Positions 8,041 to 42,341 of a stretch of 64,000 nt of DNA are shown here, in pieces. Below the pieces are notes generated by a model. The model was not told the DNA's origin, made no database searches, and was given only the letters and a program-made list of their open reading frames with translations. The first letter of the stretch is position 1; every line of letters begins with the position of its first letter. The stretch is from positions 49,164-113,163 of the forward strand of contig JAHITY010000072.1 in the NCBI GenBank assembly GCA_018817165.1, written 5' to 3'. This stretch comes from Candidatus Omnitrophota bacterium (lineage in GTDB: Bacteria; Omnitrophota; Gorgyraeia; B26-G9). The position numbers were made by a program, and so were the translations under genes.

Positions 8041-8139
8041 ACACAAGGAAACAAAAAACAGAAGCAGGTGTGATAAACACTGATAAAAAAAAGTATTGAT
8101 GAACACAGATGGAATTGACCATCGACCATAAGTGTTCTT

Positions 8140-8280: not shown

Positions 8281-8363
8281 CTGCAGTTATTAATTACGAA
8301 TTGTTAGTTTTTACTTTTTACTATTAGCCATCGACAATTAGCAATTAGCCTTATGCTTTTCCC

Positions 8364-8398
8364 TTGTGACCTTGTGTCTTGGTGACTTTGTGACCTTG
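8364..8398. repeat. Degenerate heptamer microsatellite (CTTGTGW)x5
   Basis: 'cttgtga ccttgtgt cttggtga ctttgtga ccttg' directly abutting the stop of the minus-strand ABC permease gene. Same motif family as 38829, 44632, 48817 and 62067. Confidence 0.6.
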
Positions 8399-8400
8399 AA

Positions 8401-9207
8401 TCAATACTGGGTTAGACTGCCGCGGCAGCAGGCAATATAGATTGCTTTTTTAAAAGCTTTTAGGCTGAGAGGGCAAAGGACAATAGAGAATATAAGCAAA
8501 AATAGCAGTTCGTTTTTAAGTTGAAAAATGCTATAACCTTGATAAACCGCTAGTTCTATGGCCCGGATCGCATAAGTTACCGGCAAGCAATGGGCAATAA
8601 TTTGCAAATATCCCGGTAAAACACTGATCGGAAAGTAAACTCCGCCTACCACACCCTCTAAAGTACTGATCAGCCAAGCCGTGGGATTGCCTCTTTTATA
8701 AATTAAAATAAAGCTGGCTGAGAGAATTCCCAAACTGCTAAAAGAAATGATAGTTAAAATTAGTGCGGCAAAAGTTGAGATCAGGTTAATGTTGGAGAAG
8801 TTTATTTTAAATAAAAACAGACCAAAAAGAAAATAAATCAAAACATCTATTGTGGCAAAGATAATGTTCCAAATTGTCATGCTTAATAGTATTATTTCAG
8901 TTTTTGTCGGTGTCAGAAGTAGAGATTCGAGGGTTCCTTGTAATTGTTCAAATCGAATTCGAGATGAAAAGGATCCTATCCCAACTCCAATATAGCTAAA
9001 AAATGCCATGCTTAATAAAACATAGGAAAAATAATTTACCCCAAATTCCTCTAAGTATTTGTTCATATTGTTGCCAAATAATTTATTAATGAAGAAATAT
9101 ATTAATAGCGATGCGCAAACACTGAAGATATTCATAATAAAAGCTAATTTATAGCTAGATTCCATTAAGAAATCTTTTTTAAGCAAAGCAAAAATTTTTC
9201 TAAGCAT
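8401..9207 (-). CDS. ABC-2 type transporter permease (Wzm/TagG-like polysaccharide export permease)
   Basis: 268 aa with 6 predicted TM helices. 8-nt overlap with the upstream ATPase gene. Context of glycosyltransferases. Confidence 0.7.
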   Translation of the reverse strand: MLRKIFALLKKDFLMESSYKLAFIMNIFSVCASLLIYFFINKLFGNNMNKYLEEFGVNYFSYVLLSMAFFSYIGVGIGSFSSRIRFEQLQGTLESLLLTPTKTEIILLSMTIWNIIFATIDVLIYFLFGLFLFKINFSNINLISTFAALILTIISFSSLGILSASFILIYKRGNPTAWLISTLEGVVGGVYFPISVLPGYLQIIAHCLPVTYAIRAIELAVYQGYSIFQLKNELLFLLIFSIVLCPLSLKAFKKAIYIACCRGSLTQY

Positions 9208-9991
9208 TTTTCATCACCGTCTTATAAATATCAGTTAAAGAGGCATCAGCGTTCTTAAGGTTTTGGTGTAAAGTATCGATACTGCCTAAGGCAGCAATTT
9301 TTCCACTTTTGAGAAACATGAATGTATCACAAAGATTTTCTGCTTCTGGAATATTATGACTGGTTAAGATAATGGTTGTCTTGTTTGCGCTAAGATCCTT
9401 AATGAATTTATAGAGACTCATTGATGTGTCAAAATCAAGGCTTTTGGTTAATTCGTCGACTAAAAGTATTTTAGGCCGATGAATAATTGCTCTTAAAAGA
9501 GAAAGCTTTCTTTTCATTCCAGAGGAATATGTGTCAAAGCGTTTGTGAATATAATTTATATCAAATATTGATAAAAGCTCATTAATGCGAAGTTTTGTTT
9601 GCTTGGGCGTTAATCCGTACATAGCGGCAAAAAACTCTAGGTTTTGTATGCCGCTTAAACGCCAATAAAAACTGCGTTCTTCATTGTCGACAAATCCAAA
9701 AAGAGATTTTATCTTATCGGCTGGGGTATTAGCAAGATAGTGGTCGATAACTATAGAGCCTTTATCTGGAATGATTAAAGTACAAAGGCATTTTAGTAGT
9801 GTGGTTTTTCCGGCCCCATTTGGTCCGAGTATTCCCAGTATTTTGCCCGAATCTAATTGGAAATTTATGTCTTCCAATGCGCTAACAGGATTCTTGTTTG
9901 CGAGTCTAAACTTGAGGATATCCTGCAAGGTTAGCACGGGGGAAAATGATTTACTCATATGGGAGACGTGTATAATATTAGCTTGATTCAT
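9200..9991 (-). CDS. ABC transporter ATP-binding protein (Wzt/TagH-like, no C-terminal extension)
   Basis: 263 aa. Walker A 'GPNGAGKTTLLKCL', signature 'YSSGMKRKLSL', Walker B 'ILLVDELTKSLD'. Confidence 0.85.
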   Translation of the reverse strand: MNQANIIHVSHMSKSFSPVLTLQDILKFRLANKNPVSALEDINFQLDSGKILGILGPNGAGKTTLLKCLCTLIIPDKGSIVIDHYLANTPADKIKSLFGFVDNEERSFYWRLSGIQNLEFFAAMYGLTPKQTKLRINELLSIFDINYIHKRFDTYSSGMKRKLSLLRAIIHRPKILLVDELTKSLDFDTSMSLYKFIKDLSANKTTIILTSHNIPEAENLCDTFMFLKSGKIAALGSIDTLHQNLKNADASLTDIYKTVMKNA

Positions 9992-10173
9992 TTTATTAAT
10001 TTATCAGATAGATAAATTTCAGTCAAGATATGTTTTTTCTCTCGGAGATAAACAAGATTTATCCTTTTATTATGACTTGAAAAAAATATGCGATATATGT
10101 TAAAATAAGTCACACTAAAGGTATAGCTTAAAATTAAGGGAGTTTAAATTAATTTTCTAAGGGAGGGGTTTTT

Positions 10174-11574
10174 ATGTATAAATTATTTAGCAAGGGGATT
10201 GCTGGTTTAATAGTATTTTGTTTTATAGCCACAATGAATATATCTAGTGTCTTAGCTCAGGATGCTAAAATTGATGAATCTCAAGTCGCCGGTGAATTTT
10301 TCGGAATGCCTGTTTCTGCGGCAAATTACTATTTTGCTAAAAGGGTTGTAATGACATTTGGCGCAAAATGGCGAGGAACGCCTAAAGACGAAGCAGAGCT
10401 GGAAGATCTTGTTTGGCAAGAACTGCTTTTCTCTTATGAGGCATTTAACCGCGGAATTACAGTTTCTGATCAGGAGATTGATGCAGAAATTGAAAAGATT
10501 TTGCAATCCAATAAAGTGGATTTTAGCTTTAGGGTCGATAAAGAAAAATATCAGCAGTGGGTTAAGGATACTTTAGGCGTGCCTTTAGACGCGTTTAGAA
10601 ACCAAATAGAACATTTAGTAAAGCTAGAAAAACTAAGAACTCAGATTATTGATGGGTTTGATCCTGAAGTTACAGAGGCAGATGCTTATGCTAAATTTCT
10701 GAATGAGTATAATACGCTGATGGTGGAGTTAAAAGAGTTTGGAGATATTGAAACAGCTCAAGAGTTTTATGAAAAGTCAGTGGCTCCCATTTCGGAAAAA
10801 GCTGATGATCAATTGATCTGGAATGACTTGATCTATTCTTATGCAGCTAGTTTGCGAAAATTCAAAGCGCAGGATGCGGATGTGGATAAAACAATTGAAA
10901 CATTATTGCGCAATGATGAAGTTAGTTTTAAATGGAAAGAGGAGTCTGATAAGTATCATCAATGGATTAAGGATAAATTTGATATGAATTCAGCTGATTT
11001 TAGAAATCATATGACAAGTTTGACCACTATCGATGATTTTAGCCGTAAGCTATTAGCTAAAGAACAGCCAGAGATTGAAAATAAAACAAAATTTGGTGAT
11101 TTTCTGAAGAAAAATAAAACAGTTTCTATTGCCTATAATTTCTTTTTTGATACATTTGAGTCTGCCGGACCCGATGTGCTAAGATTTGCTTCAGCTAATC
11201 AGGCAAAGAAGTTTTATGCGAAGGCAGGTAGAGTACCGGGGTTTTGGGAAGATGAGAAAAGAAAAGATCCGTCAGCTTTTAAGGTCCCGGGTTTTGTTGC
11301 TTTAGACTTTCTTATCCATATGTGGGGTTTTACCAAAGAAGATGCTTATAAAATGCTAGATGAACAAATAGGGGCATATTATCCTCCATCGCCGATTTAT
11401 AAAGGATATGGAGTTTTTAAAATAAAAAAAATTCGTAAGGCTGATCCAGCAGAATTTGAGAGTAAAAAAGAGGATTATCTAAAAAAAGTAAAGATGATCA
11501 AACAATATGATATGTATCAACAATGGGTAGATGATTATAAGAAAAAAGCAGTGATAAAAGTTTACATTAAATAG
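10174..11574 (+). CDS. Secreted protein with internally duplicated SurA-N-like (chaperone-like) domain; function unknown
   Basis: 466 aa. Signal peptide 'MYKLFSKGIAGLIVFCFIATMNISSVLAQ'. Two homologous segments ('EDLVWQELLFSYEAF...YQQWVKD' and 'DQLIWNDLIYSYAAS...YHQWIKD'). Good RBS 'aagggagggg' upstream. Confidence 0.55.
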   Translation: MYKLFSKGIAGLIVFCFIATMNISSVLAQDAKIDESQVAGEFFGMPVSAANYYFAKRVVMTFGAKWRGTPKDEAELEDLVWQELLFSYEAFNRGITVSDQEIDAEIEKILQSNKVDFSFRVDKEKYQQWVKDTLGVPLDAFRNQIEHLVKLEKLRTQIIDGFDPEVTEADAYAKFLNEYNTLMVELKEFGDIETAQEFYEKSVAPISEKADDQLIWNDLIYSYAASLRKFKAQDADVDKTIETLLRNDEVSFKWKEESDKYHQWIKDKFDMNSADFRNHMTSLTTIDDFSRKLLAKEQPEIENKTKFGDFLKKNKTVSIAYNFFFDTFESAGPDVLRFASANQAKKFYAKAGRVPGFWEDEKRKDPSAFKVPGFVALDFLIHMWGFTKEDAYKMLDEQIGAYYPPSPIYKGYGVFKIKKIRKADPAEFESKKEDYLKKVKMIKQYDMYQQWVDDYKKKAVIKVYIK

Positions 11575-11576
11575 TA

Positions 11577-12059
11577 ATGGAAAATACTGTTCAGCAGGCT
11601 AAAGCAGAGATATATAAGCGAGATATTGCTAAAAAGGGCAAGCTTCAGATTACGGTTATTGGAAATTCAATGTATCCCTTTTTAAAAAATAAAGACATTA
11701 TTTTCCTTAATCCCGCCAAATTAACAGACATTTATGTTGGTGATATTGTTTTAACTTATAATGGAATGAGGATGCTTTGTCATCGGGTTTTTAAAATAAA
11801 TAAAGATAGCTTTCAGACTAAAGCTGATGCCTTGATTGGTCCTGATTTAATAGTTTGTGAAAATGATTTAATCGGAAAAGTTGTTGAAAAAATTAGCCCT
11901 AAAAACAAAAGAAGAGTTAATGTTTTGCCGGCAAAATGGTCGGGATTTTTTATTTCGAGAGTTATGATTATTGGCGCTTTTTTTTATATTCCTGCAAGAC
12001 TGCTAAGAAAAATATGGAGAGCTTTAATCTCTTTTTTATCTTTTCAAAGACAACCTTAA
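11577..12059 (+). CDS. S24/S26-family (signal-peptidase-I-like) serine peptidase, possibly SipW/ER-type Ser-His
   Basis: 160 aa. 'VIGNSMYPFLKNKDIIF' resembles the GDSMxPTL nucleophile box. 'LCHRVFKI' is a candidate His box. 'GDIVL' box and a C-terminal TM helix. Confidence 0.45.
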   Translation: MENTVQQAKAEIYKRDIAKKGKLQITVIGNSMYPFLKNKDIIFLNPAKLTDIYVGDIVLTYNGMRMLCHRVFKINKDSFQTKADALIGPDLIVCENDLIGKVVEKISPKNKRRVNVLPAKWSGFFISRVMIIGAFFYIPARLLRKIWRALISFLSFQRQP

Positions 12060-12062
12060 GAT

Positions 12063-13223
12063 TTGTATAATATGCATAATTATAGAAACGCGATTAATTC
12101 TGAAGCGAGCATAGATAAGCTGATTATCGCTTGTTTGCGCAATTCGGCTGATTGTCAATTGGCGCTAGAAAGCGTGGATTTGCCTCATTTTAACTGGCAG
12201 CTTTTTTTGAAGAAAATTTTCAGTGAGGGGGTTGCTGGATTATTATTTGATAATTTTAGTAAATGGGGCTTGGGAAAGAAATTACCGGATTGGGTCTTAG
12301 CTGAAATAAAACAAAATTATATGCGCAATCTGGGCAGAAATTTATTGATTGCTACTTATTTAGAAAGTGTATTGCAAACTTTCGAGGAAAATCAATTAGA
12401 GGTATTGCTGCTGCGCGGAGCTGATTTTTTAAGCCGATTATACCCGAAGCTGGGCAGCCGGACGATGAGTGATGTTGATTTAGTAATTCATAAAGAAGAT
12501 ATATCCAAAGTTAAGAGTTGTTTGGAAGCTCTTGGCTATCGGCATCCTCAAGGCTATCAATTCCTGTTTGATAACAATGTTTTATTTATAGACCTGCATA
12601 TAGACTATATTGGCTCTTATAAATTAGCGCAGAATTCTTCGTCTCCGACTATAAAAAACCAAGTTATTTGGATGGATGCAATTCCTTTTAAAAGTAATGC
12701 TGTTTATGTTAAGACATTATCAGTTTACGATGCTATTGTCAGTTGTTGCGCCCATTTACAGGAGCATTCATTTTCCAAGCTGATCTGGTTTTATGATATT
12801 CGAAATCTTATAGCTGAAAGCAAAGATGCTTTTGATTGGGATAATTTGATTTTAAAAGCTAGACAGTTTGATTTGGAAAAACCAGTTTTTTATGTGTTAA
12901 GTTACTTGAATATTAATAGGATTTTAAGTGTTCCGGATAAAGTAATGCAGGAACTTCCCTTGCTTAAATTAAATGGTTTGGAAAAGAAATCGCTTAAAAT
13001 GCTATTGAGTTATAGGCGAAGCGATATTTCGGGGGAACTGCTTTATGTTTTTTCTAAAAAAGGATTAATTTCCAAGTTTAAATGTCTATGGCAGTCAATA
13101 TTTATTGATAAAGAGAATTTTCATTTGTCTGTAGAAAAAATAACATTTTGGCATTATCTGAAGCGATTTTTTTCTATGAGCTTGTATGGAATTCGGAAAA
13201 TGTTTAAGCTGATCGTTACTTAA
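12063..13223 (+). CDS. Nucleotidyltransferase-family protein (NTP_transf_5-like) of the HprK-related/PqqD/rSAM cassette
   Basis: 386 aa. 'LLLRGADFLSRLYPKLGSRTMSDVDLVIHKED' is the G-x-D...D-x-D minimal nucleotidyltransferase signature seen in 'uncharacterised nucleotidyltransferase' proteins of RiPP-like clusters. Confidence 0.55.
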   Translation: MYNMHNYRNAINSEASIDKLIIACLRNSADCQLALESVDLPHFNWQLFLKKIFSEGVAGLLFDNFSKWGLGKKLPDWVLAEIKQNYMRNLGRNLLIATYLESVLQTFEENQLEVLLLRGADFLSRLYPKLGSRTMSDVDLVIHKEDISKVKSCLEALGYRHPQGYQFLFDNNVLFIDLHIDYIGSYKLAQNSSSPTIKNQVIWMDAIPFKSNAVYVKTLSVYDAIVSCCAHLQEHSFSKLIWFYDIRNLIAESKDAFDWDNLILKARQFDLEKPVFYVLSYLNINRILSVPDKVMQELPLLKLNGLEKKSLKMLLSYRRSDISGELLYVFSKKGLISKFKCLWQSIFIDKENFHLSVEKITFWHYLKRFFSMSLYGIRKMFKLIVT

Positions 13224-13226
13224 ATA

Positions 13227-14048
13227 ATGAAAAATAGAGAAAGCCAAGTGATGGATTTATTAATTGGCGGTATATATATTAAAATCAAGAGCAATAATTC
13301 TTATTTTTTAAGGAAAACGGCAGATGAGTTTAAGTCATTTGTTTTAGAAAATAAGACAAGTGATTATTTTTTGATTGAAGTGATTGATGATTATATACCT
13401 AAAGAAATTGACGCTATTAGTGTTAAGAGAAAAGATAGTGTTTTTAAAGCCCAGGCGGATGAGTTTATTGCGAGCATTGATCTGGGGAAAAAGATAGCTA
13501 AAGTGCATGTAGCTGATCTGGCAGGGGTTTTTAATTGTTTCCTTAGGGTGTTTTATTCAATTGTCCTATTGGACAATAATGGTTTCTTGGTTCACGCGGC
13601 TGGATTGTCTTTTCAAGGGAAGGGGTATGTGTTTTCCGGAGCTTCAGAAAGCGGCAAAACAACCACTGCAAGAATGGCGCAGGATTGTAAGGTTTTCAGC
13701 GATGAACTGGTTCTTATTAGGCAAATTAACAAACACAATTTTATTTATTCAACGCCGTTTCATGGTGAATTTGAGGGGGATATCTTAAGTGATTGTGTTG
13801 ATTTGGAGGCATTAGCTTTTTTAAGTAAGGATATTCCCCGGGGATACAAGCGATTAAGCAAAATAGAAATATTTACTAGTTTAATGGTAAATATTTTCTT
13901 TTTTTCCTGGGATGATGAATCTAATCAGAAATTGATCAACCTAGTTAGCTGTATAGGTGAAAGTCAAAGTGGTTATAAGGTTGATTTATTTAATTATGAT
14001 ATTAGGAGGGTTATTAATGGAATCAGTAAAAACAATAATTCGCAATAA
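13227..14048 (+). CDS. HPr kinase/phosphorylase C-terminal-domain-like protein (HprK-related kinase)
   Basis: 273 aa. 'VHAAGLSFQGKGYVFSGASESGKTTTA' matches the HprK P-loop region (H-x-x-x-L...G-x-S-G-x-G-K-S/T). Confidence 0.65.
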   Translation: MKNRESQVMDLLIGGIYIKIKSNNSYFLRKTADEFKSFVLENKTSDYFLIEVIDDYIPKEIDAISVKRKDSVFKAQADEFIASIDLGKKIAKVHVADLAGVFNCFLRVFYSIVLLDNNGFLVHAAGLSFQGKGYVFSGASESGKTTTARMAQDCKVFSDELVLIRQINKHNFIYSTPFHGEFEGDILSDCVDLEALAFLSKDIPRGYKRLSKIEIFTSLMVNIFFFSWDDESNQKLINLVSCIGESQSGYKVDLFNYDIRRVINGISKNNNSQ

Positions 14049-14292
14049 TAAAGCAGCGTGGCAGCAAGTAGAGGATAATGTAATTGTTGTTACCAGTCAG
14101 ACAAGAAAAATGCATATTCTCGAAGGAGTTGGTGGCAGGATTTGGCAATTGCTTGAAAATCCTATGAGTAGGAATGAATTAATTGAAAAAATTCAAATAG
14201 AATATGATGCTCCTCCATGGCAAATACAGGAAGATATCGATAATTTTCTAAAAGAATTATCAGAAAAATTAATAATTAAAATAAATGGATAA
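14017..14292 (+). CDS. PqqD-family protein (RiPP recognition element / peptide chaperone)
   Basis: The ORF track starts at 13957, overlapping the HprK-like gene. The in-frame ATG at 14017 gives a ~91-aa protein 'MESVKTIIRNNKAAWQQVEDNVIVVTSQ...HILEGVGGRIWQLLENPMSRNELIEKIQIEYDAPPWQIQEDIDNFLKELSEK', which is the canonical PqqD fold sequence. Confidence 0.75.
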   Translation: MESVKTIIRNNKAAWQQVEDNVIVVTSQTRKMHILEGVGGRIWQLLENPMSRNELIEKIQIEYDAPPWQIQEDIDNFLKELSEKLIIKING

Positions 14293-15322
14293 GCAGATGC
14301 AAACTATTTGGAGCAAAGTTAAAGCGGATTTAAAACAAAAAGCAATCCCGATTGATGTTGTGCTTGAGTTGACTCGGAAATGTAATCTGAGTTGCTGTCA
14401 TTGTTATAATTTTAAAGATAATGCAGAGCTTAGTTTTGTCCAGGTTAAGGATATTGCCAGGCAATTAAGACAGGCAGGAACTTTATTTTTATCATTAACC
14501 GGCGGGGAAATTTTTACAAAAGCGGATATTTTTGAAATCTGTTTTTATTTGCGTCAGAGTTGCTTTGCTCTATCGATATTTACGAATGGAACCTTAATAA
14601 ATCAGAGCAATATCAAGATTATCCGGGAATTAGATCTTAATGAAGTGGGAATCAGCATACAGGGGGCAATAGCAAAAACTCATGACAAGATTGTTGGTTG
14701 TCAGGGGGCTTTTGCTAAATCAATAAACGCGATAAAATTATTGAAAAACGCTCAAATTCCGGTTAATTTAAAATGCACATTAATGCAAGATAACTTTGCG
14801 GAATATCATGATTTGATCAAGCTGGCAAGTGAACTGGGGGTGCCTTATATTATTGACCCGGTTGTTTCGCCAAAAGATGATGGCTCAAAAGATGTTTTAG
14901 CGCATCGCTTAGATGAAAAACAATTGTTTGATTTTTATCAAAATGAGTTACTCGAACAAAATAGTTTTATGCAAAAAAAAGAAGAAGATCCTGATGCTGA
15001 TTTCAGTTGTCCGGCAGGAACGGTTATGGCGAGTATTTCGGCAAAAGGAGATGTTTATCCTTGTATTCAGCTTCCCAAAAAGTTAGGTAATGTGTTTGAT
15101 ACTGATTTTAGAGGAATTTGGGAAAATTCAAAATTTTTAACTGAGCTAAGAGAAAAAACAAATATTCCGGCTTGTCGTAATTGCCGATTAGCGGCTTATT
15201 GCACCAGATGTCCTGGCTTAGCCTATCTTGAAGACGGAAATGCCTTTGGGATATCAAGCATTGCTTGCATTAATGCCGCGGTTTATGAGAAAATAGTAAA
15301 GCAAGAAACCTTAAACAAATGA
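14285..15322 (+). CDS. Radical SAM enzyme with C-terminal SPASM domain (peptide-modifying maturase-like)
   Basis: 345 aa. 'CNLSCCHCYN' (CxxxCxxC), 'SLTGGEIF', and the C-terminal Cys cluster 'CPAGTVMASISAKGDVYPCIQ ... CRNCRLAAYCTRCPG' (SPASM). Confidence 0.85.
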   Translation: MDKQMQTIWSKVKADLKQKAIPIDVVLELTRKCNLSCCHCYNFKDNAELSFVQVKDIARQLRQAGTLFLSLTGGEIFTKADIFEICFYLRQSCFALSIFTNGTLINQSNIKIIRELDLNEVGISIQGAIAKTHDKIVGCQGAFAKSINAIKLLKNAQIPVNLKCTLMQDNFAEYHDLIKLASELGVPYIIDPVVSPKDDGSKDVLAHRLDEKQLFDFYQNELLEQNSFMQKKEEDPDADFSCPAGTVMASISAKGDVYPCIQLPKKLGNVFDTDFRGIWENSKFLTELREKTNIPACRNCRLAAYCTRCPGLAYLEDGNAFGISSIACINAAVYEKIVKQETLNK

Positions 15323-17274
15323 GGATTATGAATAATCGATTGATTAAAAAACTTACGATTCAAATAATTATTATAGTGGTGATTATTGCCGCAGTATTTT
15401 CCTTTCTAATTAGTATGCAGACCAAAGAGCTTAAGTCTCGGATCATTGATAAGGCGGGGTTGTTTTCGTCTATTCTGGGAGCGCATCTAGATAATATAAT
15501 CGAAAATAATTTACGGGCATATGAAGCTTTGCAGCAAAATGTTGTGCAATTAACCAAAGATAATCAGGATATTGAAGAAATCAGTATTATTGCTCAGGAA
15601 AAAGTAGTTATCGCTGCCAGTGATAAAAATCTGATTGGTAAGGTTCCAGAGTTCGCGCATATCGCGATAATTGATGATGTTATTAAAACTAAACGTTCAA
15701 GAGCGATTGTCAGCTCTGAATTGGGGCGGGAGATTGTGATCCATTTCTTACCTTTATTCGCTGCGGATATAAATAAAAATGAGCTGTTGGGAATTATGCA
15801 GATGAAAGCAAAATTTCCTTCGCAAAAGGGCGAGATCGTCACTGCTTTGCGAAAAAATCGAAATGCTTACTATAAAGAAGAGGCTTTGCGTTTTGCGACG
15901 TCTCTTTCCAAATCGCTGGAAATTGTTTTAGGGGAAGTCAAAAGAAACTCGACTTATCTTGATGAATTAATCAGCAATATGTTAAAAGATAAGGAAATCC
16001 GAGATATAAAAATATTTTTAAAAGATTTAGAGTTTTTAATATCAGCAACTAAGGGCAGAGGTAATTTGGCTTTAACAGAGCAAGAAAAATCAATTTTTCT
16101 TAAAGTGATGCAAGATGAAAAAATAATGACCCATACAGTGGGAAAAAAAGAATATTTAACTGAAATTATCAGCCCGCTATATATAAGTTTAGATAATCAG
16201 AAAAAATCGCTGGGCGCGGTGGGAATTGTGATTTCAGCGGAGCAGGTGACTTCTTTGATTCGCATACGGAGAAATTACATTATTTTAATGAGTTTTGTGA
16301 TTATCTGTGCTTTTGTGTTGATAATCGGAATATTTTTTAAGCTGTCGATTATTCGACCGATTCGGGATCTTATAAATATGACTAAAGGGATTGCCCTGGG
16401 AGATTTTTCTAAAAAAGTTATGCTGGCGGCTAATGATGAAATAGGAGATTTAACCAAGGCATTTAATCATATGGCAGATGAACTGTCAAGTTCAAAGCAG
16501 GAAATTGAAGATTGGAATCTGCGGCTGCAAGATAAAATTGAAGCAGTGACCAAGGATCTTAATGCTAAACAGCAAATGCTGATTGAATCAGAAAAAATGG
16601 CTTCTCTGGGCGTTTTATCCGCAGGGATCGCGCATGAAATCAATAATCCCTTGGGGGTTATTTTAGGGCATGCTCAAATGCTGATAAAAGAATTAAAAGA
16701 AAAAAAATCATTAGATAATCCTCAAGAATCAATTCAGATGCTGGAGACAATTGAAAGTTATACTAGGCGCTGTTCATATATTGTAAATAGTTTAATTCAA
16801 TTTGCCAGGGAAAAACAAATGCAGATGATTGATGTGGATGTGAATCAGGCAATAGAAAATGCTTTGATTTTTACGCAGAACCGGATATCGAATAAAAGCA
16901 TTGAAATCGTTAAAACCCTCGAAGAAAATCTGCCAAATATCGCTGCTGATCAGATTCATCTGGAGCAGGTGTTTATTAATATTATTCTGAATGCTGAAGC
17001 AAGCATGCCGCAAGGCGGGAGCCTTAAAATTTCTACTCAGAAAACTAATGCACAAATAAAAGTTTTATTCGAAGATAATGGCCAAGGGATTTCTAAGGAT
17101 GATATGAATCGGATTTTTGAGCCGTTCTTTTCCACCAAAGATCCGGGCAAAGGTTCCGGCTTGGGATTGTCATTAAGTTATGGGATTATCCAGGCGCATG
17201 GAGGGGATATAAAGATCGTCAGTAAAAAAAATAAAGGGACATTGGTTGAAGTTTTATTACCGCTTAAGGGGTAA
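15319..17274 (+). CDS. Sensor histidine kinase (periplasmic sensor domain, TM, HAMP, HisKA, HATPase_c)
   Basis: 651 aa. N-terminal TM, second TM ~aa 320 followed by a HAMP-like segment. H-box 'SAGIAHEINNPLGVILGHAQML'. N/G boxes 'IILNAEASMPQGG', 'FEDNGQGI', 'GSGLGLSLSYGII'. 4-nt overlap with the rSAM gene. Confidence 0.85.
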   Translation: MRIMNNRLIKKLTIQIIIIVVIIAAVFSFLISMQTKELKSRIIDKAGLFSSILGAHLDNIIENNLRAYEALQQNVVQLTKDNQDIEEISIIAQEKVVIAASDKNLIGKVPEFAHIAIIDDVIKTKRSRAIVSSELGREIVIHFLPLFAADINKNELLGIMQMKAKFPSQKGEIVTALRKNRNAYYKEEALRFATSLSKSLEIVLGEVKRNSTYLDELISNMLKDKEIRDIKIFLKDLEFLISATKGRGNLALTEQEKSIFLKVMQDEKIMTHTVGKKEYLTEIISPLYISLDNQKKSLGAVGIVISAEQVTSLIRIRRNYIILMSFVIICAFVLIIGIFFKLSIIRPIRDLINMTKGIALGDFSKKVMLAANDEIGDLTKAFNHMADELSSSKQEIEDWNLRLQDKIEAVTKDLNAKQQMLIESEKMASLGVLSAGIAHEINNPLGVILGHAQMLIKELKEKKSLDNPQESIQMLETIESYTRRCSYIVNSLIQFAREKQMQMIDVDVNQAIENALIFTQNRISNKSIEIVKTLEENLPNIAADQIHLEQVFINIILNAEASMPQGGSLKISTQKTNAQIKVLFEDNGQGISKDDMNRIFEPFFSTKDPGKGSGLGLSLSYGIIQAHGGDIKIVSKKNKGTLVEVLLPLKG

Positions 17275-17283
17275 ATTAGAAAA

Positions 17284-18663
17284 ATGAAAAAAGAACATAT
17301 TCTAGTTGTAGATGATGAACCGGGAATGCGGCAGTTTTTAAATAAACTGTTAAGCGATAATGGTTATAAAATTTCAACAGCGGAAAATGGAAATGATGCA
17401 CTTGATTTAATCGCGAAACAGGTCCCGGATTTGGCAATAATTGATTTTAAAATGCCGGGCATGGATGGATTACAGTTATTAAGCAAGATAAAAGAAAAGT
17501 TTCCCCAAGTAACTGTGATCATGATGACAGCTTATGGCACAATGGAGAACGCTATCCGGGCAATCAAATCAGGAGCATATGATTATCTTTCTAAGCCTTT
17601 TGAGATTGAATCAATATTGTTGGTTATAAATAAGGCTTTAGAGAAAAAACGTTTAGAAGCGGAAAACCTAACCTTACGCCAAGAGCTTAAAAAAACCTAT
17701 ACTTTTTCTGATATTATTTCCGAAAACGCGGCAATGCATAAAATATTTGATCTGATTAAAAAAGTCGCGCCAACTAAAAGTACAGTTTTAATCCAAGGCC
17801 AGACCGGAACAGGCAAAGAACTAGTTGCTCGAGCGATTCATGCTTTAAGTCCCAGGCAGGAAAAGAATTTTGTGCCGGTTGATTGCGCGGCTTTAACGGA
17901 AAGTCTGCTGGAGAGTGAATTGTTTGGCCATGTAAGAGGGGCGTTTACCGGCGCCAGCCAGGATAAAAAGGGCTTGTTTGAAGTTGCGGATGGCGGAACA
18001 ATCTTTCTCGATGAAATTGGGCATATTTCCAAAGAAGTGCAGGCAAAACTTTTAAGAGTATTGCAGGATGGTGATATCAAAAGGGTGGGCGAAGCATTGA
18101 CCAGAACAGTTGATGTGCGATTGATTGCAGCCAGCAATGAAGATATTGAAAAAGCGGTTAAGCAAGGGACTTTTCGGGAAGACCTTTTTTATCGTTTGAA
18201 TGTAGTGCCGGTTTGGATTCCAGCGCTGATGGACAGAGCGGAAGATATTCCGATGCTGGTAGAGCACTTTATTTTAAAATACAATCGGATTGAAGCAAAA
18301 AAAGTCGAGGGCATGACCAGTACTGCTTTAAAAATCTTGATGGAGTATTCTTGGCCTGGTAATGTTCGGGAGTTGGAAAATATTATTCACCGGGCAGTGG
18401 TTATGGCTACAGAGGCTAAGATTGACCTTGCGGATTTGCCGCAGGTTGTAAGAATTGCTCCGACCGCTGACCTAAGAGACAAGTCGCGTACGCTTAATTT
18501 TAAAAAGGCAAAGCAAAGGGCGATAGAGGTTTTTGAACAGAGGTTCTTAACAGAGGCCCTTATGCGGCATGAAGGAAATGTGAGCCGGACAGCTAAAGAG
18601 ATAGGCCTGGACAGAAGGAACCTACACAAAAAATTAAAAAGTTACAAGATAAAATCCCGCTAA
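17284..18663 (+). CDS. Sigma-54-dependent response regulator (NtrC family: REC + AAA+ sigma-54 activator + Fis-type HTH)
   Basis: 459 aa. REC 'ILVVDDEPGMRQFL...DFKMPGMDG'. Walker A 'GQTGTGKELVARAIH'. 'GAFTGA' motif present verbatim ('VRGAFTGAS'). C-terminal 'NVSRTAKEIGLDRRNLHKKLK' HTH. Confidence 0.9.
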   Translation: MKKEHILVVDDEPGMRQFLNKLLSDNGYKISTAENGNDALDLIAKQVPDLAIIDFKMPGMDGLQLLSKIKEKFPQVTVIMMTAYGTMENAIRAIKSGAYDYLSKPFEIESILLVINKALEKKRLEAENLTLRQELKKTYTFSDIISENAAMHKIFDLIKKVAPTKSTVLIQGQTGTGKELVARAIHALSPRQEKNFVPVDCAALTESLLESELFGHVRGAFTGASQDKKGLFEVADGGTIFLDEIGHISKEVQAKLLRVLQDGDIKRVGEALTRTVDVRLIAASNEDIEKAVKQGTFREDLFYRLNVVPVWIPALMDRAEDIPMLVEHFILKYNRIEAKKVEGMTSTALKILMEYSWPGNVRELENIIHRAVVMATEAKIDLADLPQVVRIAPTADLRDKSRTLNFKKAKQRAIEVFEQRFLTEALMRHEGNVSRTAKEIGLDRRNLHKKLKSYKIKSR

Positions 18664-18664
18664 T

Positions 18665-18760
18665 TTCCCCTTTCTTAAAACATAAAAAATACTTAAAAAT
18701 CTCCATAAGTAACAAAACAAGCAATGCTTGAAATGTAATAAATTGTAGTTTAAAATAATA
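18665..18760. repeat. Left copy of a ~90-bp direct repeat flanking the RAYT-like gene; contains the palindrome AAGCAaTGCTT (18719..18729)
   Basis: 'cccctttcttaaaacataaaaaatac...ccataagtaacaaaacaagcaatgcttgaaatgtaataaatt' is matched by 19770..19865. Confidence 0.6.
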
Positions 18761-18779
18761 TGGAGGAAAAGGAGGGAAA

Positions 18780-19631
18780 ATGAGAAAGGTAGAAGGGGTT
18801 CCGCTGGCTAGGGAAAGAATAATCTATCCTAATGCTGTTTATCATATTACGCACCGGGCGCCGGGGCGAGAGATGCTATTCCTCGAAGATAGTGATTATC
18901 TTTACATGCTTTCCTTGTTAAAAAGTATTCCGCAGAAATTTAGCTGGAAGATATTTTCATTTTGCTTGATGCCTAATCATTTGCATTTATTGGTTCGAAT
19001 AAAAGATGTAAATCTTTCGCTGGGAGCAAAATATTTATTTGAAAAATACGCAAAATATCTTAACGCGAAATATTCAAGAAAAGGTCCGGTTTTTTGTAAG
19101 CCTTTTAGGGCGAGTTTATGCTTGAATGATAAATATTTGCTTGCTATTTCTTTGTATATTCATTTGAATCCATTTAAAGCCGGATTAATTATGGAATTGA
19201 GTAAATACAGGTGGAGTTCTTTGAATTTATTTATAGGAAGAATTAGTACTCAAAGTTTTGTTGATTGTGATTTTATCTTAAATATGTTAAACGACAATAC
19301 TGAGAAATCAAAAGAAATATATATTAATTTAATAAACGATGCGATAAATGTCCGGCTAAATGCTATTTCTCAGGATCGCAATGCCTTAAACAATTTTAGG
19401 CTGGAATTTGCTTATTACATGAAATCAAAAAATAAGGTAGATAACGTTGATGAAGACACATTGAAGCTATGTGAGGAAATAGAAAGAAGTAAAAAAAACA
19501 AGCAGTGCACTCATCCGGAAGATGTAGCTGCTCTAAAATATCTAGGGAGCAGCTACTTGCCAACGGCTATACAATTTCAGAAATTGCCAAAATGCTGCAC
19601 AAAAGCCGACAGCTTATTTCCCGCAAATTAA
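18780..19631 (+). CDS. HuH Y1 transposase-like protein (IS200-like / REP-associated tyrosine transposase RAYT family) with C-terminal extension
   Basis: 283 aa. 'YHITHRA', HuH motif 'MPNHLHLLV', catalytic-Tyr region 'YIHLNPFKAGLIMELSKYRWSS' (cf. the Y-x-H-x-NP...GLV...W-SS motif of RayT/IS200 TnpA). Strong RBS 'ggaggaaaaggagggaaaATG'. Confidence 0.7.
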   Translation: MRKVEGVPLARERIIYPNAVYHITHRAPGREMLFLEDSDYLYMLSLLKSIPQKFSWKIFSFCLMPNHLHLLVRIKDVNLSLGAKYLFEKYAKYLNAKYSRKGPVFCKPFRASLCLNDKYLLAISLYIHLNPFKAGLIMELSKYRWSSLNLFIGRISTQSFVDCDFILNMLNDNTEKSKEIYINLINDAINVRLNAISQDRNALNNFRLEFAYYMKSKNKVDNVDEDTLKLCEEIERSKKNKQCTHPEDVAALKYLGSSYLPTAIQFQKLPKCCTKADSLFPAN

Positions 19632-19769
19632 TCAAGTAATCCTGTTTACTGCTAAAAATAATCAAATATAACATAAAGAGCATTGCTTATAATGTTATAT
19701 TTGGCTTGGATAGAGAAATATGGATAAAAAATTAAGGTTTTACCAGATAAATCTTCGCAAGTCTCCCTT

Positions 19770-19865
19770 TTTTAAAACACACAAAATATTATTTAATTTG
19801 GAAGCATTAAAGAGCACTAAAGTATCTATAAGTAACATTATAAGCAATGCTTGAAATGTATATTT
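19770..19865. repeat. Right copy of the ~90-bp direct repeat; palindrome AAGCAaTGCTT at 19842..19852; an inverted partial copy 'gagcattgctta' at 19688..19699
   Basis: 'tctcccttttttaaaacacacaaaatatt...ctataagtaacattataagcaatgcttgaaatgtatatttta' matches 18665..18760. Confidence 0.6.
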
Positions 19866-20021: not shown

Positions 20022-20050
20022 TTGTCTTGGCATAGCTATTGCTCTATAAT
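20022..20050 (+). promoter_or_regulatory. Candidate promoter of the giant gene: sigma-54 -24/-12 element TGGCAT-N5-TTGCT (20028..20043), overlapping a sigma-70-like TTGTCT-17-TATAAT (20022..20050)
   Basis: 'tTGGCATagctaTTGCTctataat'. GG (20029-30) and GC (20041-42) are separated by exactly 10 nt as in the sigma-54 consensus TGGCAC-N5-TTGCW. An NtrC-type activator gene lies 1.4 kb upstream. Confidence 0.4.
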
Positions 20051-20082: not shown

Positions 20083-20271
20083 AGTATGTTAAAAAATACG
20101 AAAAGGGAATAGTCTGTTAAGAAAAATGAAAAAATAGTATGCTAAGAAATATGAAAAAGGAATAGTATGCTAAGAAAAATGAAAAAAGAGCAGGATGTTA
20201 AGAAAAATGAAAAAATAGTATGTTAAAAAATACGAAAAGGGAGTAGTATGCTAAGAAATACGAAAAAGGTT
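20083..20271 (+). repeat. Six or seven tandem ~27-bp copies of the giant gene's own RBS/start-codon region (AGTATGYTAARAAAWAYGAAAARGGRAT), creating serial mini-uORFs
   Basis: Units begin at 20083, 20111 (CTG instead of ATG), 20136, 20164 (extended), 20217 and 20245 (the real start at 20248). uORFs: MLKNTKRE*, MLRNMKKE*, MLRKMKKEQDVKKNEKIVC*, MLKNTKRE*. Each ATG is preceded by 'aagggaat/aaaggaat' (SD-like). Confidence 0.8.
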
Positions 20272-23200
20272 AATAATATAGATTTTCCTAATAATCTGTT
20301 AAAATTTTGCTTAACTTTTTTGTTTTTTATTGGACCTTTAATTATCTTTACATCTTTTGCGCAAGCTGATGTGCCTGTGTTTATGGCTTATTCGCAAGCA
20401 AGTGCTACCAGTGGAGGCACTATTAATGTTACTAAGCCTTCTGGGACTGTACAGGGTGATTTACTTATTGCCAGTTATGTATCTGATGACATATATACCT
20501 TAACCGCGCCCTCAGGTTGGACGCTTATTCAAGGCGGATATTCAAATCCGGTTGATAATACGCCAAGTTTTGGTGTCTGGTATAAGATCGCCGATGCTTC
20601 AGAACCGACCAGCTATACATTTTCTTCAGGGGGAAACGATGACCAATATGTAGCGATTCTCAGATATCAAGGCCATGATCCGGCAGCGCCGATAAATAAT
20701 TCGGCAATTGCTTATTCCACTGGCAGCAATGCTCCTACAGCACCTTCAATAAATACTACGAGGGAAGAGTGTGTTATTTTACGGGTGTTTGGGGCTGATG
20801 ATGATGATACTCCGTATAATGTTCCGGCTGGATATTCGGAGCGCTATAATGGGAAAAGTACTGCCAGTAATAGTTCCTGCGGAGGTGCAGGCGCTGATAC
20901 TACACAGGCTTTGCCCGGGGCAACTGGGACCGCTGCTTTTTCGATGAATGCTATTGAAGAGTGGATGGCTGTAACTATTGCAATAGCTCCGCCGCCAAAG
21001 CCAAATGTAAATATCACAGTCACCCCTAACCAGACAAAGGCTCAGAACAGCGGCGGTTTGGAGTTTAAACTTGTTTTTGATCAGGTGATGAATACTTCAA
21101 TAGCGCCGGTGGTAAGTTATGACCCGGCAGGAGTACTCGGAGCCCAGTCGTGTACTGGAGGAACATGGTCAACTACGACACTGACAAATGATACATACAA
21201 AGTTTACAATGACAATCCGATAACTGATTCTACTGGTGATGGCACAGCCACGATAAGCGTGAGTGCAGCTAAAAGCGCAGCAGGGGCAATAATGAACCCT
21301 GATACGAATGACACTTTTCTTATTGATGCGACTGTTCCTATTAATCCTACACAGCCTTGCAGCGCATGGAATTCTAGCAGTAAAATAAATTCGATAGCCA
21401 ATGATACTTGGCAGGAAGCAGATAATACGCCTTATTTTGAATGGTCAGGCGCAACAGATACTGGCGGCACAGGAGTCAACGGTTATTCGGTTTATTGGGG
21501 AAATGACGCGTACGGTGAACCAGCATTAATCCAAGAACAGTCGGCCAGCAATTATAATGTTTCCTCAGGAACGGCAGATGGGGTTTATTATCTAAGAGTT
21601 AGAACTTTTGATATTATTGGTAATTACAGTCAGTCGGTAACTTTGTTTACTTTTCGCTATGATGCCGGTGTTCCTTTAAATCCGGATATTCCCTGTGCTG
21701 CTTGGCAATCAAATCTAAAAGTAAATCCCATCAGTAATAATACATGGCAGCAAGCTGATGATACGCCTTATTTTGAATGGACCGGTGCTAATGACAGCGG
21801 AGGTTCAGGAATAAGCGGCTATTCAGTTTATTGGGGTACTGATATTAATGGAGCACCAGGAGTAAGTCAAGAACAGGGCAATGCTGATTATGAGATCAGT
21901 ACTCCGACGGGTGATGGGACCTATTATTTAAGGATAAGAACTTTTGATAATCTTAATCATTATAGCGCGCCAATTACTTTATTTACATTTCGATATGACG
22001 CAACTGCTCCTTTGAATCCCACAGTTCCGTGTAATGCCTGGGATTCTTCATCTAAGAATACAGTGATTTCTGATAATACTGCTCAAGGGATTGATTCAAG
22101 TCCTTATTTTGAATGGTCTGGAGCAGATGACGGCAGCGGTCAAGGCGTCAGCGGATATTCAGTTTACTGGGGTATTGACCCAGAGGGCGAGCCGGCAACA
22201 GCACAGGAACAATCAGCGGCAAATTATAATATTGTTTCCGCGGTAAGTGAAGGTACTTATTATTTACGCATAAGGACATTTGATGCTTTGGGACATTACA
22301 GTGATGCTGTAACATTATTTACGTTTATTCTTGATCAAACAAAACCCACGGTCAGCGTGGGTGTTTTGCCTGATCCCTCTGGGCACAGAGCTCCCGGGGA
22401 ATTAGGGTTTACTTTACTTTTTTCTGAATCCATGGATATGGGTACAGATCCAATTGTAAGTTATGATCCTAGCGGAGCAACCGGAGTACAGAACGCAAGT
22501 CTTAATGGGGCTTGGTCAACAACAAATAATCCTAATGATACTTATACTGTTTACAATAGCAATGCGATAAACAGTGCTACCGGAGAAGGCACAGCAACAA
22601 TCTCGATCAGCATGGCAAAAGATATTGCCGGCAATACAATGCTGGCTGACACTAATGATGTTTTCTCGATCAATACAGCGATAGACCATTTTGTAATTGA
22701 GCATGATGGATCAGGATTAATTAATATTCCGGAAACTATAACTATTACCGCGAAAAATATCACTAACTGTACGGTAAATGATTTTACCGGTCAGATAACA
22801 TTAAGTACTTTAAATGAAACAAAACAGATCACCTGGGCTTTGGTCAGCGGCAATGGAACTTTTGTTGATAATGGATTAGGCAATGATTCAGCAACCTATA
22901 CTTTTAATGCCGCTGACAATGGGGTGGTTGTATTGCAGCTTACTTGCAGTGCGGCAAACAACTTGGATATTGAGGCAACGGATGGAACGCATAGTGATGA
23001 TGATACTGAAGGAACCTTGGTTATTTCGACAACGGCTTTAGGCTGGTTTGTGATTGAGCATGATAATGCGGCAGTTGCCGGAGTAAAAGAAGATATAAAA
23101 GTCACAGCCAAAGATACAAATGGCCTGACGAAAACAGATTATGTGGGAACAGTTATTTTAGATACCACGGGAACACCAACAACAATTTCCTGGACGATCA

Positions 23201-40011: not shown

Positions 40012-40025
40012 TCAAGGAAATAAAA

Positions 40026-40904: not shown

Positions 40905-40912
40905 CGGGGGTT

Positions 40913-42275: not shown

Positions 42276-42341
42276 TGCTCTGATTTCTTGTCTTTTTTAT
42301 CCATGTTTTTTATTATACATTATTTGGGAATATTCAACAAA

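Follow-up and report, generated by a model that had tools for sequence, protein, structure and literature searches.

A tightly packed operon in an uncultured Candidatus Omnitrophota bacterium (assembly GCA_018817165.1, contig JAHITY010000072.1) is a peptide-modifying (RiPP) cassette, with all of its chemistry inferred from sequence, and it is probably not an orphan. A conserved candidate precursor of 55 residues lies 24 kb away in the same window, the term used here for the whole 64,000-nucleotide stretch analyzed, and belongs to an apparently undescribed peptide family of over 200 members, nearly all of which end in serine. The initial annotation had described an orphan maturase cassette transcriptionally joined to a sensor kinase and a sigma-54 regulator, with no visible precursor. 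This observation was confirmed, including the absence of a precursor from the operon itself, whereas its interpretation was only partly supported, as detailed below.

Organization of the operon

Eight co-directional genes run from 10174 to 18663 on the forward strand, separated by at most 9 nt or overlapping. These encode a secreted 466-aa protein (10174–11574), an S24/S26 peptidase (11577–12059), an NTP_transf_5 nucleotidyltransferase (12063–13223, with a TTG start and an ATG following at 12072), a P-loop kinase (13227–14048), a PqqD protein (14017–14292), a radical-SAM/SPASM enzyme (14285–15322), a histidine kinase (HK, 15319–17274) and a sigma-54 response regulator (RR, 17284–18663). From the peptidase onwards the junctions are, in order, +3 nt, +3 nt, a 32-nt overlap, an 8-nt overlap, a 4-nt overlap and +9 nt, so that two details of the initial annotation require correction. 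The HK to RR gap is 9 nt rather than 3 nt or less, and the tight run starts one gene earlier than reported, since the 466-aa gene ends 2 nt before the peptidase gene. The protein encoded by this first gene is SurA_N-like and of chaperone type (Pfam SurA_N_3, 28.2 bits against a cutoff of 27.2), and is conserved in the related loci L002, L003, L007 and L009 (L-numbers denote loci from other sequences), but absent from L004 and from the distant cassettes. A candidate sigma-70-like promoter lies upstream at 10077–10106 (+) (TTGAAA-18-TAAAAT with a TG-extended −10, 10 of 12 matches), although this is a consensus match only and is not enriched over shuffles.

This arrangement is not a chance feature. 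The order peptidase, nucleotidyltransferase, kinase, PqqD, radical-SAM, HK, RR recurs in six other loci (L002, L003, L004, L007, L008, L009), across which kinase identity to the window falls as low as 34%. The cassette itself recurs with shuffled gene order in Omnitrophota, Methylomirabilota/Rokubacteria, Krumholzibacteriota and Elusimicrobiota, although some cassettes lack the peptidase and nucleotidyltransferase (L031) and one, L020, appears to lack the radical-SAM gene. On the opposite strand, an ABC-2 transporter pair of the DrrA/DrrB type (permease at 8401–9207, ATPase at 9200–9991) is a probable exporter or immunity pump, identified by Pfam ABC2_membrane and ABC_tran and by NCBIfam drrA (193.8 bits), with weaker hits to lantibiotic-protection, SagH and PSM exporters. 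The pair sits next to the cassette in L010, L011, L013, L014, L016 and L046 despite their rearranged gene order.

Proteins of the maturation cassette

HMM searches and a fold search confirmed all domain assignments of the initial annotation. The peptidase is a homologue of the S26B (ER/archaeal, SipW-like) type of signal peptidase with a C-terminal hydrophobic anchor, reaching the TIGR02228 cutoff for archaeal-type signal peptidase I (56 bits against 51.85), and its catalytic motifs are intact. In an alignment of 14 homologues Ser31 (GNSM) is conserved in at least 90% of sequences and His69 and Asp84 are invariant, while the surrounding His69-Arg70 (CHRV) and Lys82/Asp84 (TKGDA) pairs are likewise conserved. 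In L004 and L007 the peptidase is fused to the nucleotidyltransferase, which in the window scores 150.5 bits against Pfam PF14907 and displays a GS...DVD motif. The kinase has a PEPCK/HprK fold with Walker A and acidic motifs, its catalytic motifs are intact, and it is assigned to Pfam ScmC (PF27840) in precomputed annotations. The PqqD protein, a RiPP recognition element (RRE) that would act as a leader-binding chaperone, scores 49 bits against a Pfam cutoff of 23.4, and its best NCBIfam hit is lasso_PqqD_Bac (42.7 bits, below the cutoff of 80).

The radical-SAM enzyme carries a full SPASM domain (Pfam Radical_SAM 67.6 bits, SPASM 44.6 bits), with CNLSCCHC and seven C-terminal Cys visible in the sequence, and reaches no NCBIfam equivalog cutoff. 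Its scores against the SkfB (78.9 against 300), AlbA (107 against 850) and StsB (80 against 625) models all fall short, but its closest solved relative is the peptide maturase SkfB (6efn, 72.7 bits, E 2.7e-19). The RiPP reading therefore survived a condition set in advance for its rejection, since the enzyme is not a sulfatase maturase and the PqqD protein passes its model. In contrast, the suggestion that the cassette represents the TIGRFAM HprK-related kinase A/B system was not supported, as HprK_rel_A and HprK_rel_B (TIGR04352 and TIGR04355) score 15.5 and 27.9 bits against cutoffs of 200.

A family of candidate precursors

No precursor-like ORF of 20 aa or more lies between 7900 and 20400, and a family HMM likewise found none there. 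However, at least 16 related cassettes from other candidate phyla (L010–L018, L026, L028, L031, L037, L038, L040 and L044) carry a 45–70 aa gene of one family next to the cassette, usually directly after the radical-SAM gene. The reciprocal test also holds, in that three peptides chosen without regard to context each sit inside a ScmC-PqqD-rSAM cassette. Of 208 family peptides, which combine a conserved leader with a variable core, 204 have YxxP and 201 the YxxPxL leader motif, the first Cys is 18 residues after the Tyr in 148, the residues before that Cys are mostly A-L-[AGS], and 195 end in Ser.

A single member of this family occurs in the 64 kb, at 42137–42304 (−), encoding MDKKDKKSEQKKKYQPPRVDTREIYEINALGCAKCVSAANISLSISCIRGTKKYS. 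An HMM built from five cassette-adjacent peptides hit it modestly (21 bits, E 1.7e-4), but hhalign of its subfamily against the cassette-adjacent subfamilies gave a probability of 91% (E 8.9e-7), and BLASTP to cassette-adjacent peptides gave E-values of 3e-7 and 7e-8. The peptide is under purifying selection (dN/dS 0.07–0.21 against three orthologues) and shows the family hallmarks, namely Y14xxP17 within the YxxPxL-type leader motif (Y14-Q-P-P-R-V), a first Cys 18 residues after the Tyr and preceded by A-L-G, a CxxCx11C pattern as in the cassette-adjacent L012 and L031 peptides, and a C-terminal Ser. It also weakly hits the SkfA model (16.6 bits against a cutoff of 45, E 0.0058). Its gene follows by 37 nt the last gene, encoding a secretin, of a type IV pilus/type II secretion-like operon (42342–47837 (−); ParA-like, PilM-PilN, PilO, T2SSC-like, secretin), and the same order of secretin then peptide occurs in L021, L022 and L024.

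The link between this peptide and the cassette, 24 kb apart and on opposite strands, rests on family membership and on co-occurrence on the same contig in all three genomes with long enough contigs. No peptide was seen within 10 kb, the extent of sequence at hand, in L004, L008 or L009, and in the contig of P0066 no cassette lies within 10 kb of the peptide. Nonetheless, the existence of a dedicated precursor family makes it unlikely that the substrate is a segment of the 466-aa protein or of the giant protein, as had been speculated.

Coupling to a two-component system

The HK is a membrane sensor with an unassigned extracytoplasmic domain of about 290 aa followed by HAMP, HisKA and HATPase domains, and the RR combines receiver, AAA+ (Sigma54_activat, 238 bits, with GAFTGA) and HTH_8 domains; the catalytic motifs of the nucleotidyltransferase, radical-SAM, HK and RR proteins are intact in the sequence. 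Only one clade has this pair in the slot after the radical-SAM gene, which in other lineages usually holds the precursor gene, so that the coupling noted initially is specific to that clade and not to the cassette in general. The RR is followed by a near-consensus sigma-54 promoter (−24/−12) at 20028–20043 (+), TGGCATAGCTATTGCT, about 205 nt upstream of the gene (20248–38640 (+)) for a giant 6130-aa surface protein, whose orthologues carry DUF2341, Golvesin_C and beta-propeller domains. This is the only site in the 64 kb with one mismatch or fewer, and perfect TGGCAC-N5-TTGCT sites lie at the same position after the regulator gene in L002, L004 and L007, although sites with up to two mismatches are not enriched in the window as a whole (23 found, 29 expected). 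The giant-protein gene is thus a probable target of the regulator, in line with the initial annotation, which had proposed its co-regulation with the modified product.

Proposed pathway and alternative readings

The explanation favored here, with moderate confidence, is that the operon encodes the maturation machinery of a ribosomal peptide whose precursor family was not previously linked to it. In this view the 55-aa peptide is bound through its Y-Q-P-P-R-V leader by the PqqD protein, and its Cys-containing core (CxxCx11C) is cross-linked by the radical-SAM/SPASM enzyme, most likely through thioether bonds. The kinase would then phosphorylate the almost invariant C-terminal Ser, and the NTP_transf_5 enzyme would add a glycosyl or nucleotidyl group to that phosphate, as in phosphoglycosylated lasso peptides. 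The membrane-anchored peptidase would cut the leader at the A-L-G/C junction, and the divergent ABC-2 pump would export the product, thereby joining SkfB-like thioether chemistry to lasso-type tailoring. In this Omnitrophota clade the HK/RR pair would have taken the slot after the radical-SAM gene, with the precursor gene now residing after a secretin gene, and the regulator would drive the promoter of the giant-protein gene, so that peptide maturation and giant-protein expression would be co-regulated. The analysis itself establishes gene content, domain identities, the kinase fold, conservation, the peptide family and its linkage to the cassette, and the promoter motif, while every chemical step, leader binding, the cleavage site, the exporter role, the signal sensed by the HK, and the assignment of the distant peptide as substrate of this cassette are inferred, the chemistry by analogy alone.

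A possible but tentative variation retains these enzymes and precursor but assigns the product a signaling role, as neither an antimicrobial nor a structural molecule. The exported peptide would be the ligand of the co-transcribed HK, forming an autoinduction loop that switches on the sigma-54-dependent giant adhesin. This is consistent with the overlap of the HK and radical-SAM genes, the large extracytoplasmic domain, the conserved sigma-54 promoter, and the presence of HK/RR in the former precursor slot in exactly the clade where the precursor has moved, and peptide-sensing two-component systems inside RiPP clusters are an established pattern, for example nisin NisK/NisR. However, there is no evidence on what the kinase binds, no sigma-54 site precedes the precursor gene or the maturase operon, so that the loop is not visibly closed, and most cassettes have no HK/RR. 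A bolder extension, not excluded but doubtful, would see here a new RiPP class of uncultured candidate phyla (Omnitrophota, Methylomirabilota, Elusimicrobiota, Krumholzibacteriota), with a radical-SAM cross-linked, Cys-containing peptide phosphorylated on its C-terminal Ser and then glycosylated or nucleotidylated, serving as an HK-read extracellular signal in one Omnitrophota clade. The same family might then also supply the long-missing substrate for the ScmC-PqqD-rSAM type cassettes.

It is less likely that the cassette modifies another peptide encoded outside the window, and that the ORF at 42137–42304 is an unrelated accessory protein of the pilus/secretion operon that only resembles the precursor family. 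Its position after the secretin gene, its synteny with that operon rather than with the cassette, the modest first HMM hit and the contig of P0066 favor this view, but the agreement of independent similarity measures, the shared hallmarks, the lack of any other family member in the 64 kb and the co-occurrence on three long contigs speak against it. Least likely is a role in glycan or envelope biosynthesis, like that of the exosortase-linked HprK-related kinase systems, acting on a sugar, a lipid or a large secreted protein (the giant or SurA-like protein) and not on a small peptide, for although the cassette does sit in exopolysaccharide-type loci as initially proposed (among GT4, GT9 and GT87 glycosyltransferases, methyltransferases and a DegT aminotransferase in the window, beside Wza/Wzc/Wzy/flippase genes in relatives, often near large beta-propeller or C25-peptidase proteins, and with a PMT_2 glycosyltransferase in an Elusimicrobia variant), PqqD domains are peptide-leader binders, a dedicated peptide gene accompanies at least 16 loci including L028, which has no polysaccharide genes nearby, the HprK_rel_A and HprK_rel_B scores are far below cutoff, and a glycan context fits glycosylation of the peptide equally well.

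Relation to known systems

The exosortase/PEP-CTERM-locus HprK-related kinase A/B systems share an exopolysaccharide-locus context and a P-loop HprK-like protein with a PqqD, and the RR resembles the PEP-CTERM-box regulator of the PrsK/PrsR pair (PEP_resp_reg, 416 bits). This score is nevertheless below the cutoff of 502.6, so that the RR is not PrsR, and no exosortase or PEP-CTERM protein was seen in the window.

Phosphorylated and phosphoglycosylated lasso peptide clusters (paeninodin PadeK, pseudomycoidin PsmK/PsmN, Bradymonas BsfK/BsfN with the B1 RRE) share a discrete PqqD-type RRE, an HPr-kinase-like P-loop kinase, a nucleotidyltransferase, a YxxPxL leader motif at a fixed distance from the core, and a precursor C-terminal Ser. 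In these systems HPr-kinase homologues phosphorylate the C-terminal Ser of linear precursors, one characterized kinase was assayed together with the PqqD-like RRE, nucleotidyltransferases add hexoses to the phosphate and are sometimes fused to the leader peptidase, as mirrored in L004 and L007, and YxxPxL lies at −17 to −12 of the leader (PMC8498205, PMC10368454), although one characterized lasso kinase phosphorylates an internal Ser instead (PMC10368454). No lasso cyclase (asparagine-synthetase homologue) or transglutaminase-type B2 protease occurs in any ORF from 62 to 19631 or from 38878 to 50642; the core-forming enzyme here is a radical-SAM/SPASM protein, the peptidase is S26-type, and the cores are Cys-rich and lack the Gly1...Asp/Glu ring pattern.

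The sporulation killing factor system (SkfA precursor, SkfB thioether synthase, SkfEF ABC-2 exporter) offers the best solved relative of the radical-SAM protein, and SkfA has the same G-C-x-x-C-x11-C framework as the window peptide, with an ABC-2 type exporter lying next to the cassette here. In addition to the sub-cutoff scores, SkfB carries its own N-terminal RRE whereas here the PqqD is a separate protein, this enzyme has a seven-Cys SPASM region, the skf cluster has no kinase or nucleotidyltransferase, and SkfA has no terminal Ser.

The SynChlorMet (SCM) cassette (ScmC, ScmD, ScmE, ScmF) and the GeoRSP system have the same core trio of an HprK-like P-loop protein, a PqqD homologue and a radical-SAM/SPASM protein, and SCM has reportedly been described by its curators as a peptide-modification cassette with no known precursor. 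Only the broader Pfam ScmC family is matched here, since NCBIfam scores are far below cutoffs for ScmC (15.6 against 125), ScmD (20.5 against 100) and ScmE/ScmF (117.9 against 400 and 83 against 400). The window cassette has one radical-SAM gene rather than two, and its S26 peptidase, nucleotidyltransferase, ABC-2 pump and HK/RR pair are extra.

Operon organization and identity of the encoded proteins

In this Candidatus Omnitrophota metagenome-assembled genome the open reading frames described in the initial annotation are all present, comprising an S24/S26 peptidase (11577-12059), a nucleotidyltransferase (12063-13223), a P-loop protein (13227-14048), a PqqD protein (14017-14292), a radical-SAM/SPASM protein (14285-15322), a histidine kinase (HK, 15319-17274) and a response regulator (RR, 17284-18663), so that the observation itself is confirmed. 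Successive junctions are +3 nt, +3 nt, overlaps of 32, 8 and 4 nt, and finally +9 nt, the HK to RR gap thus being slightly larger than the 3 nt or less initially stated. The tight run also starts one gene earlier, since a secreted SurA_N-like 466-aa gene (10174-11574) ends 2 nt before the peptidase gene. The same seven-gene order recurs in six other loci, with kinase identity to the window as low as 34%, and the arrangement is therefore conserved rather than accidental.

Pfam and NCBIfam searches confirmed the domains, with NTP_transf_5 scoring 150 bits and PqqD 49 bits, Radical_SAM and SPASM both present, HAMP, HisKA and HATPase domains in the HK, and receiver, Sigma54_activat and HTH_8 domains in the RR. 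The peptidase just reaches the archaeal/ER-type signal peptidase I cutoff (56 against 51.85), and an alignment of 14 homologues keeps Ser31 (GNSM), His69-Arg70 (CHRV) and Lys82/Asp84 (TKGDA), the Ser-His type of SipW and Sec11-like enzymes. In two related loci, L004 (8463-10004) and L007 (8356-9972), this peptidase and the NTP_transf_5 nucleotidyltransferase are fused into one protein of 513-538 aa, and in L004 the nucleophile Ser is replaced by Cys (GHCM). The 273-aa P-loop protein, identical to NCBI entry KJ915_07115, receives only weak NCBIfam hits (HprK_rel_B 27.9, HprK_rel_A 15.5 and ScmC 15.6 bits, against cutoffs of 125-200), while precomputed annotation assigns it to Pfam ScmC (PF27840). 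A PDB sequence search with the kinase profile returned only generic P-loop hits, and its assignment as an HprK/PEPCK-fold kinase required a fold search instead.

The radical-SAM protein, which carries the CX3CX2C motif and seven Cys in the SPASM region, reaches no equivalog cutoff. Among solved structures its best sequence relative is the peptide maturase SkfB (72.7 bits, E 2.7e-19), with PqqE, CteB and SuiB scoring lower. NCBIfam scores for the HprK_rel_A/B, SCM, GeoRSP, WgkB/C, mycofactocin, PQQ, AhbD/NirJ and anSME-like families were all far below cutoffs, and the cofactor and sulfatase-maturase readings were therefore dropped; no sulfatase gene lies nearby. The RiPP reading thus withstands the conditions that had been set for its refutation, as PqqD is confirmed and the radical-SAM protein is not a sulfatase or cofactor maturase.

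Genomic context

Upstream of the operon lie GT87, GT4, GT9, methyltransferase and DegT genes, together with a divergent ABC-2 pair of the DrrA/DrrB type. The ABC-2 permease (8401-9207) is 57-66% identical between the window and the cassette loci L010, L013, L014 and L016, although the kinase, PqqD and radical-SAM proteins of these loci are only about 30-37% identical, so that the transporter is either under much tighter constraint than the cassette or has been exchanged between lineages. Downstream lie a RAYT-like Y1 transposase gene, a 6130-aa protein, a beta-propeller protein and pseudopilin-like/DUF7305 genes, and beyond these, on the minus strand, a pilus/secretion-like operon ending in a secretin gene. 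The IS200/RAYT-like transposase gene (18780-19631), located between the regulator gene and the giant gene (REP_Tyr_transpos 60.5 bits, cutoff 80), is conserved at 81% identity in the related locus L002 (15485-16375), which is unusual for a mobile-element gene. Large secreted proteins repeatedly sit inside or beside the cassette or the peptide gene described below, as in loci L014 (2532-8090), L016 (9-3209), L018 (5699-9467), L030 (279-6086) and L031 (10150-12789). They include C25 gingipain-like peptidases of up to 1852 aa and PQQ/BNR beta-propeller proteins, echoing the giant beta-propeller-ended protein in the window.

A candidate precursor and its peptide family

In agreement with the initial annotation, no plausible precursor was found in or beside the operon, as none of the small ORFs of 20 aa or more between 7900 and 20400 resembled one. 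A profile of the kinase was then used to retrieve 16 genome loci, and clustering of their unassigned small ORFs yielded, as the only non-trivial clusters, PqqD itself, antisense shadows, and one family of peptides of about 50 aa lying next to the cassette, in most loci directly after the radical-SAM gene. An HMM built from five of these found further members next to cassettes in L013, L015 and L017, and a pattern scan for the leader motif found another in L018. The same HMM gave one hit in the window itself, a 55-aa ORF at 42137-42304 on the minus strand (E 1.7e-4), with the sequence MDKKDKKSEQKKKYQPPRVDTREIYEINALGCAKCVSAANISLSISCIRGTKKYS.

This ORF is annotated as a hypothetical protein (KJ915_07170) and has 17 close homologues. 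Against three orthologues most substitutions fall at third codon positions, and dN/dS is 0.07-0.21. A profile-profile comparison of its subfamily with the cassette-adjacent subfamilies gives 91% probability (E 8.9e-7), and BLASTP against the cassette-adjacent peptides of L044 and L031 gives E 3e-7 and 7e-8; L031 and L012 share its CxxCx11C framework. Its orthologues lie on the same contigs as the cassette in the genome containing loci L002 and L021 and in that containing L007 and L022, always following the secretin gene and converging on the giant-protein genes. A third example has the same local synteny, but no cassette lies within 10 kb. Between the beta-propeller gene and the peptide gene (40434-42130) lie a pseudopilin-like gene (N_methyl motif, weak) and a DUF7305/ice-binding-like adhesive-domain gene, a block found in L021 but not in L022 or in L024, another locus with a peptide gene after the secretin gene. 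The 37-nt spacer between the secretin stop and the peptide's ATG (42305-42341, minus strand) has no obvious Shine-Dalgarno sequence and contains TGTATAAT only 7 nt before the ATG, so that the peptide might be made from a leaderless transcript of its own, although sigma-70 and terminator scans around the gene gave nothing convincing on the minus strand and the consensus scan called no promoter there.

An exhaustive profile search of 1.84 billion representatives returned 159 clusters at E of 1e-3 or better, and pooling these with the earlier hits gave 208 distinct peptides. Of these, 195 end in Ser and 7 in Thr, 204 contain YxxP, and in 148 the first Cys is exactly 18 residues after the Tyr; the residues preceding this Cys are mostly A-L-[A/G/S], and most peptides have two or three Cys. 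Almost all distant members are metagenomic sequences. Pfam and NCBIfam scans of six family peptides identified no family, apart from a sub-threshold hit of the window peptide to the SkfA model (16.6 bits, E 0.0058). The reciprocal test also holds, since three peptides picked without regard to context, from Methylomirabilis, a soil metagenome and Elusimicrobia, each sit directly after the radical-SAM gene of a ScmC-PqqD-rSAM cassette.

A metagenome scan added four more such loci, as well as a divergent precursor-like ORF right after the radical-SAM gene of locus L041 (8987-9136), which has a KYEKPKM leader and three Cys but ends in Leu, one of the rare exceptions to the terminal Ser rule. The peptidase and the nucleotidyltransferase are frequent but not universal. 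The Elusimicrobia version of the cassette (L031) lacks both and has instead a PMT_2/TPR membrane glycosyltransferase (6717-8603) between the PqqD and radical-SAM genes, and a 56-aa ORF ahead of its ScmC gene, considered as a second precursor, proved to be a small hydrophobic membrane protein.

Proposed maturation mechanism

The nearest characterised analogy is the tailoring module of some lasso peptide clusters, in which HPr-kinase homologues phosphorylate the C-terminal Ser of the linear precursor and a nucleotidyltransferase, sometimes fused to the leader peptidase, then adds one or two hexoses to that phosphate (PMC8498205). The leader carries YxxPxL at -17 to -12, and one such kinase was characterised in conjunction with the PqqD-like B1 protein (PMC10368454). 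All of these features have counterparts here, as the terminal Ser is nearly invariant, the leader motif sits at a fixed register, the kinase and PqqD genes overlap, and peptidase-nucleotidyltransferase fusions occur in L004 and L007. What differs is the core chemistry, for in place of a lasso cyclase or B2 protease there is a radical-SAM/SPASM enzyme closest to SkfB, and the cores are Cys-rich. The A-L-[AGS] motif before the first Cys fits the preference of type I signal peptidases for small residues at -3 and -1, and hence the S26-type enzyme as leader peptidase. While gene content, domain identities and conservation of the peptide family are established by the sequence analysis, the exact cleavage site, the type of cross-link and the group added by the nucleotidyltransferase are all inferred, and both the chemistry and the pairing of the distant peptide with this cassette rest on comparative evidence alone.

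Relationship to known systems and significance

The cassette does not fulfil the criteria for the HprK-related kinase A/B system, for the SynChlorMet cassette (scores are too low, and there is one radical-SAM gene rather than two), for lasso clusters, or for the SkfB, AlbA and StsB sactisynthase families. It does satisfy the sequence-level criteria for a generic RiPP system, an S26B-type peptidase, an HprK/PEPCK-fold kinase and a sigma-54 enhancer-binding regulator, and is best described as a RiPP biosynthetic system related to ScmC-type cassettes. The interpretation offered in the initial annotation is partly supported. Its RiPP reading is upheld and made sharper, but the 'orphan' label is probably wrong, because a candidate precursor exists 24 kb away, and the suggested link to the exosortase HprK-related system is not supported at the family level.

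A candidate substrate is thereby provided for a widespread cassette (ScmC-like kinase, PqqD, radical-SAM/SPASM) that curated databases list with no known precursor, and the clear signature of the peptide, a YxxPxL leader, a characteristic 18-residue spacing to the first Cys and a terminal Ser, makes the chemistry directly testable by co-expression and mass spectrometry. It also suggests that the lasso-type module of phosphorylating and then decorating the C-terminal Ser is a portable tailoring unit, here combined with radical-SAM cross-linking and an S26 leader peptidase. No description of this combination or of the peptide family was found in the literature searched, although the collection was incomplete and this is absence of evidence only; searches returned no paper on SynChlorMet, only unrelated acronyms for ScmC, an unrelated genome-mining paper for HPr kinase with radical SAM and RiPP, and general BGC surveys for Omnitrophota with RiPP.

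The two-component system and the giant-protein promoter

The coupling of the cassette to a two-component system is real but restricted to one clade. In the seven HK-coupled loci no family peptide lies within 10 kb, whereas in the other lineages one almost always lies beside the cassette, most often directly after the radical-SAM gene, so that in this clade the HK/RR pair occupies the precursor's usual slot. The only sigma-54 -24/-12 site in the window with one mismatch or fewer (TGGCATAGCTATTGCT, 20028-20043) lies about 205 nt upstream of the giant-protein gene, and perfect TGGCAC-N5-TTGCT sites lie at the equivalent position after the regulator gene in L002, L004 and L007. This supports the earlier proposal that the giant protein belongs to the sigma-54 regulon, and links peptide maturation to putative sigma-54 control of a 6130-residue surface protein in Omnitrophota, very small and possibly host-dependent bacteria whose giant proteins are unexplained. 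No site with one mismatch or fewer was found upstream of the maturase operon, the precursor gene or the pilus operon, and that the histidine kinase senses the mature peptide is an attractive notion but remains hypothetical.

Two further features surround this promoter. Just downstream of the RAYT-like transposase gene and upstream of the sigma-54 site lie a perfect 19-nt inverted repeat (19679-19697 and 19833-19851, 135 nt apart) and an overlapping 41-nt near-palindrome (19663-19703), together spanning 19663-19851, which could be REP-like elements or binding sites for the regulator. Between the promoter and the giant gene's ATG lies a tandem array (20083-20266) of about 6.8 copies of a 27-28-nt unit, in which, as read by eye, at least the first two units repeat the gene's first codons as a mini-ORF (for example MLKNTKRE followed by a stop), and the last copy supplies the real start.
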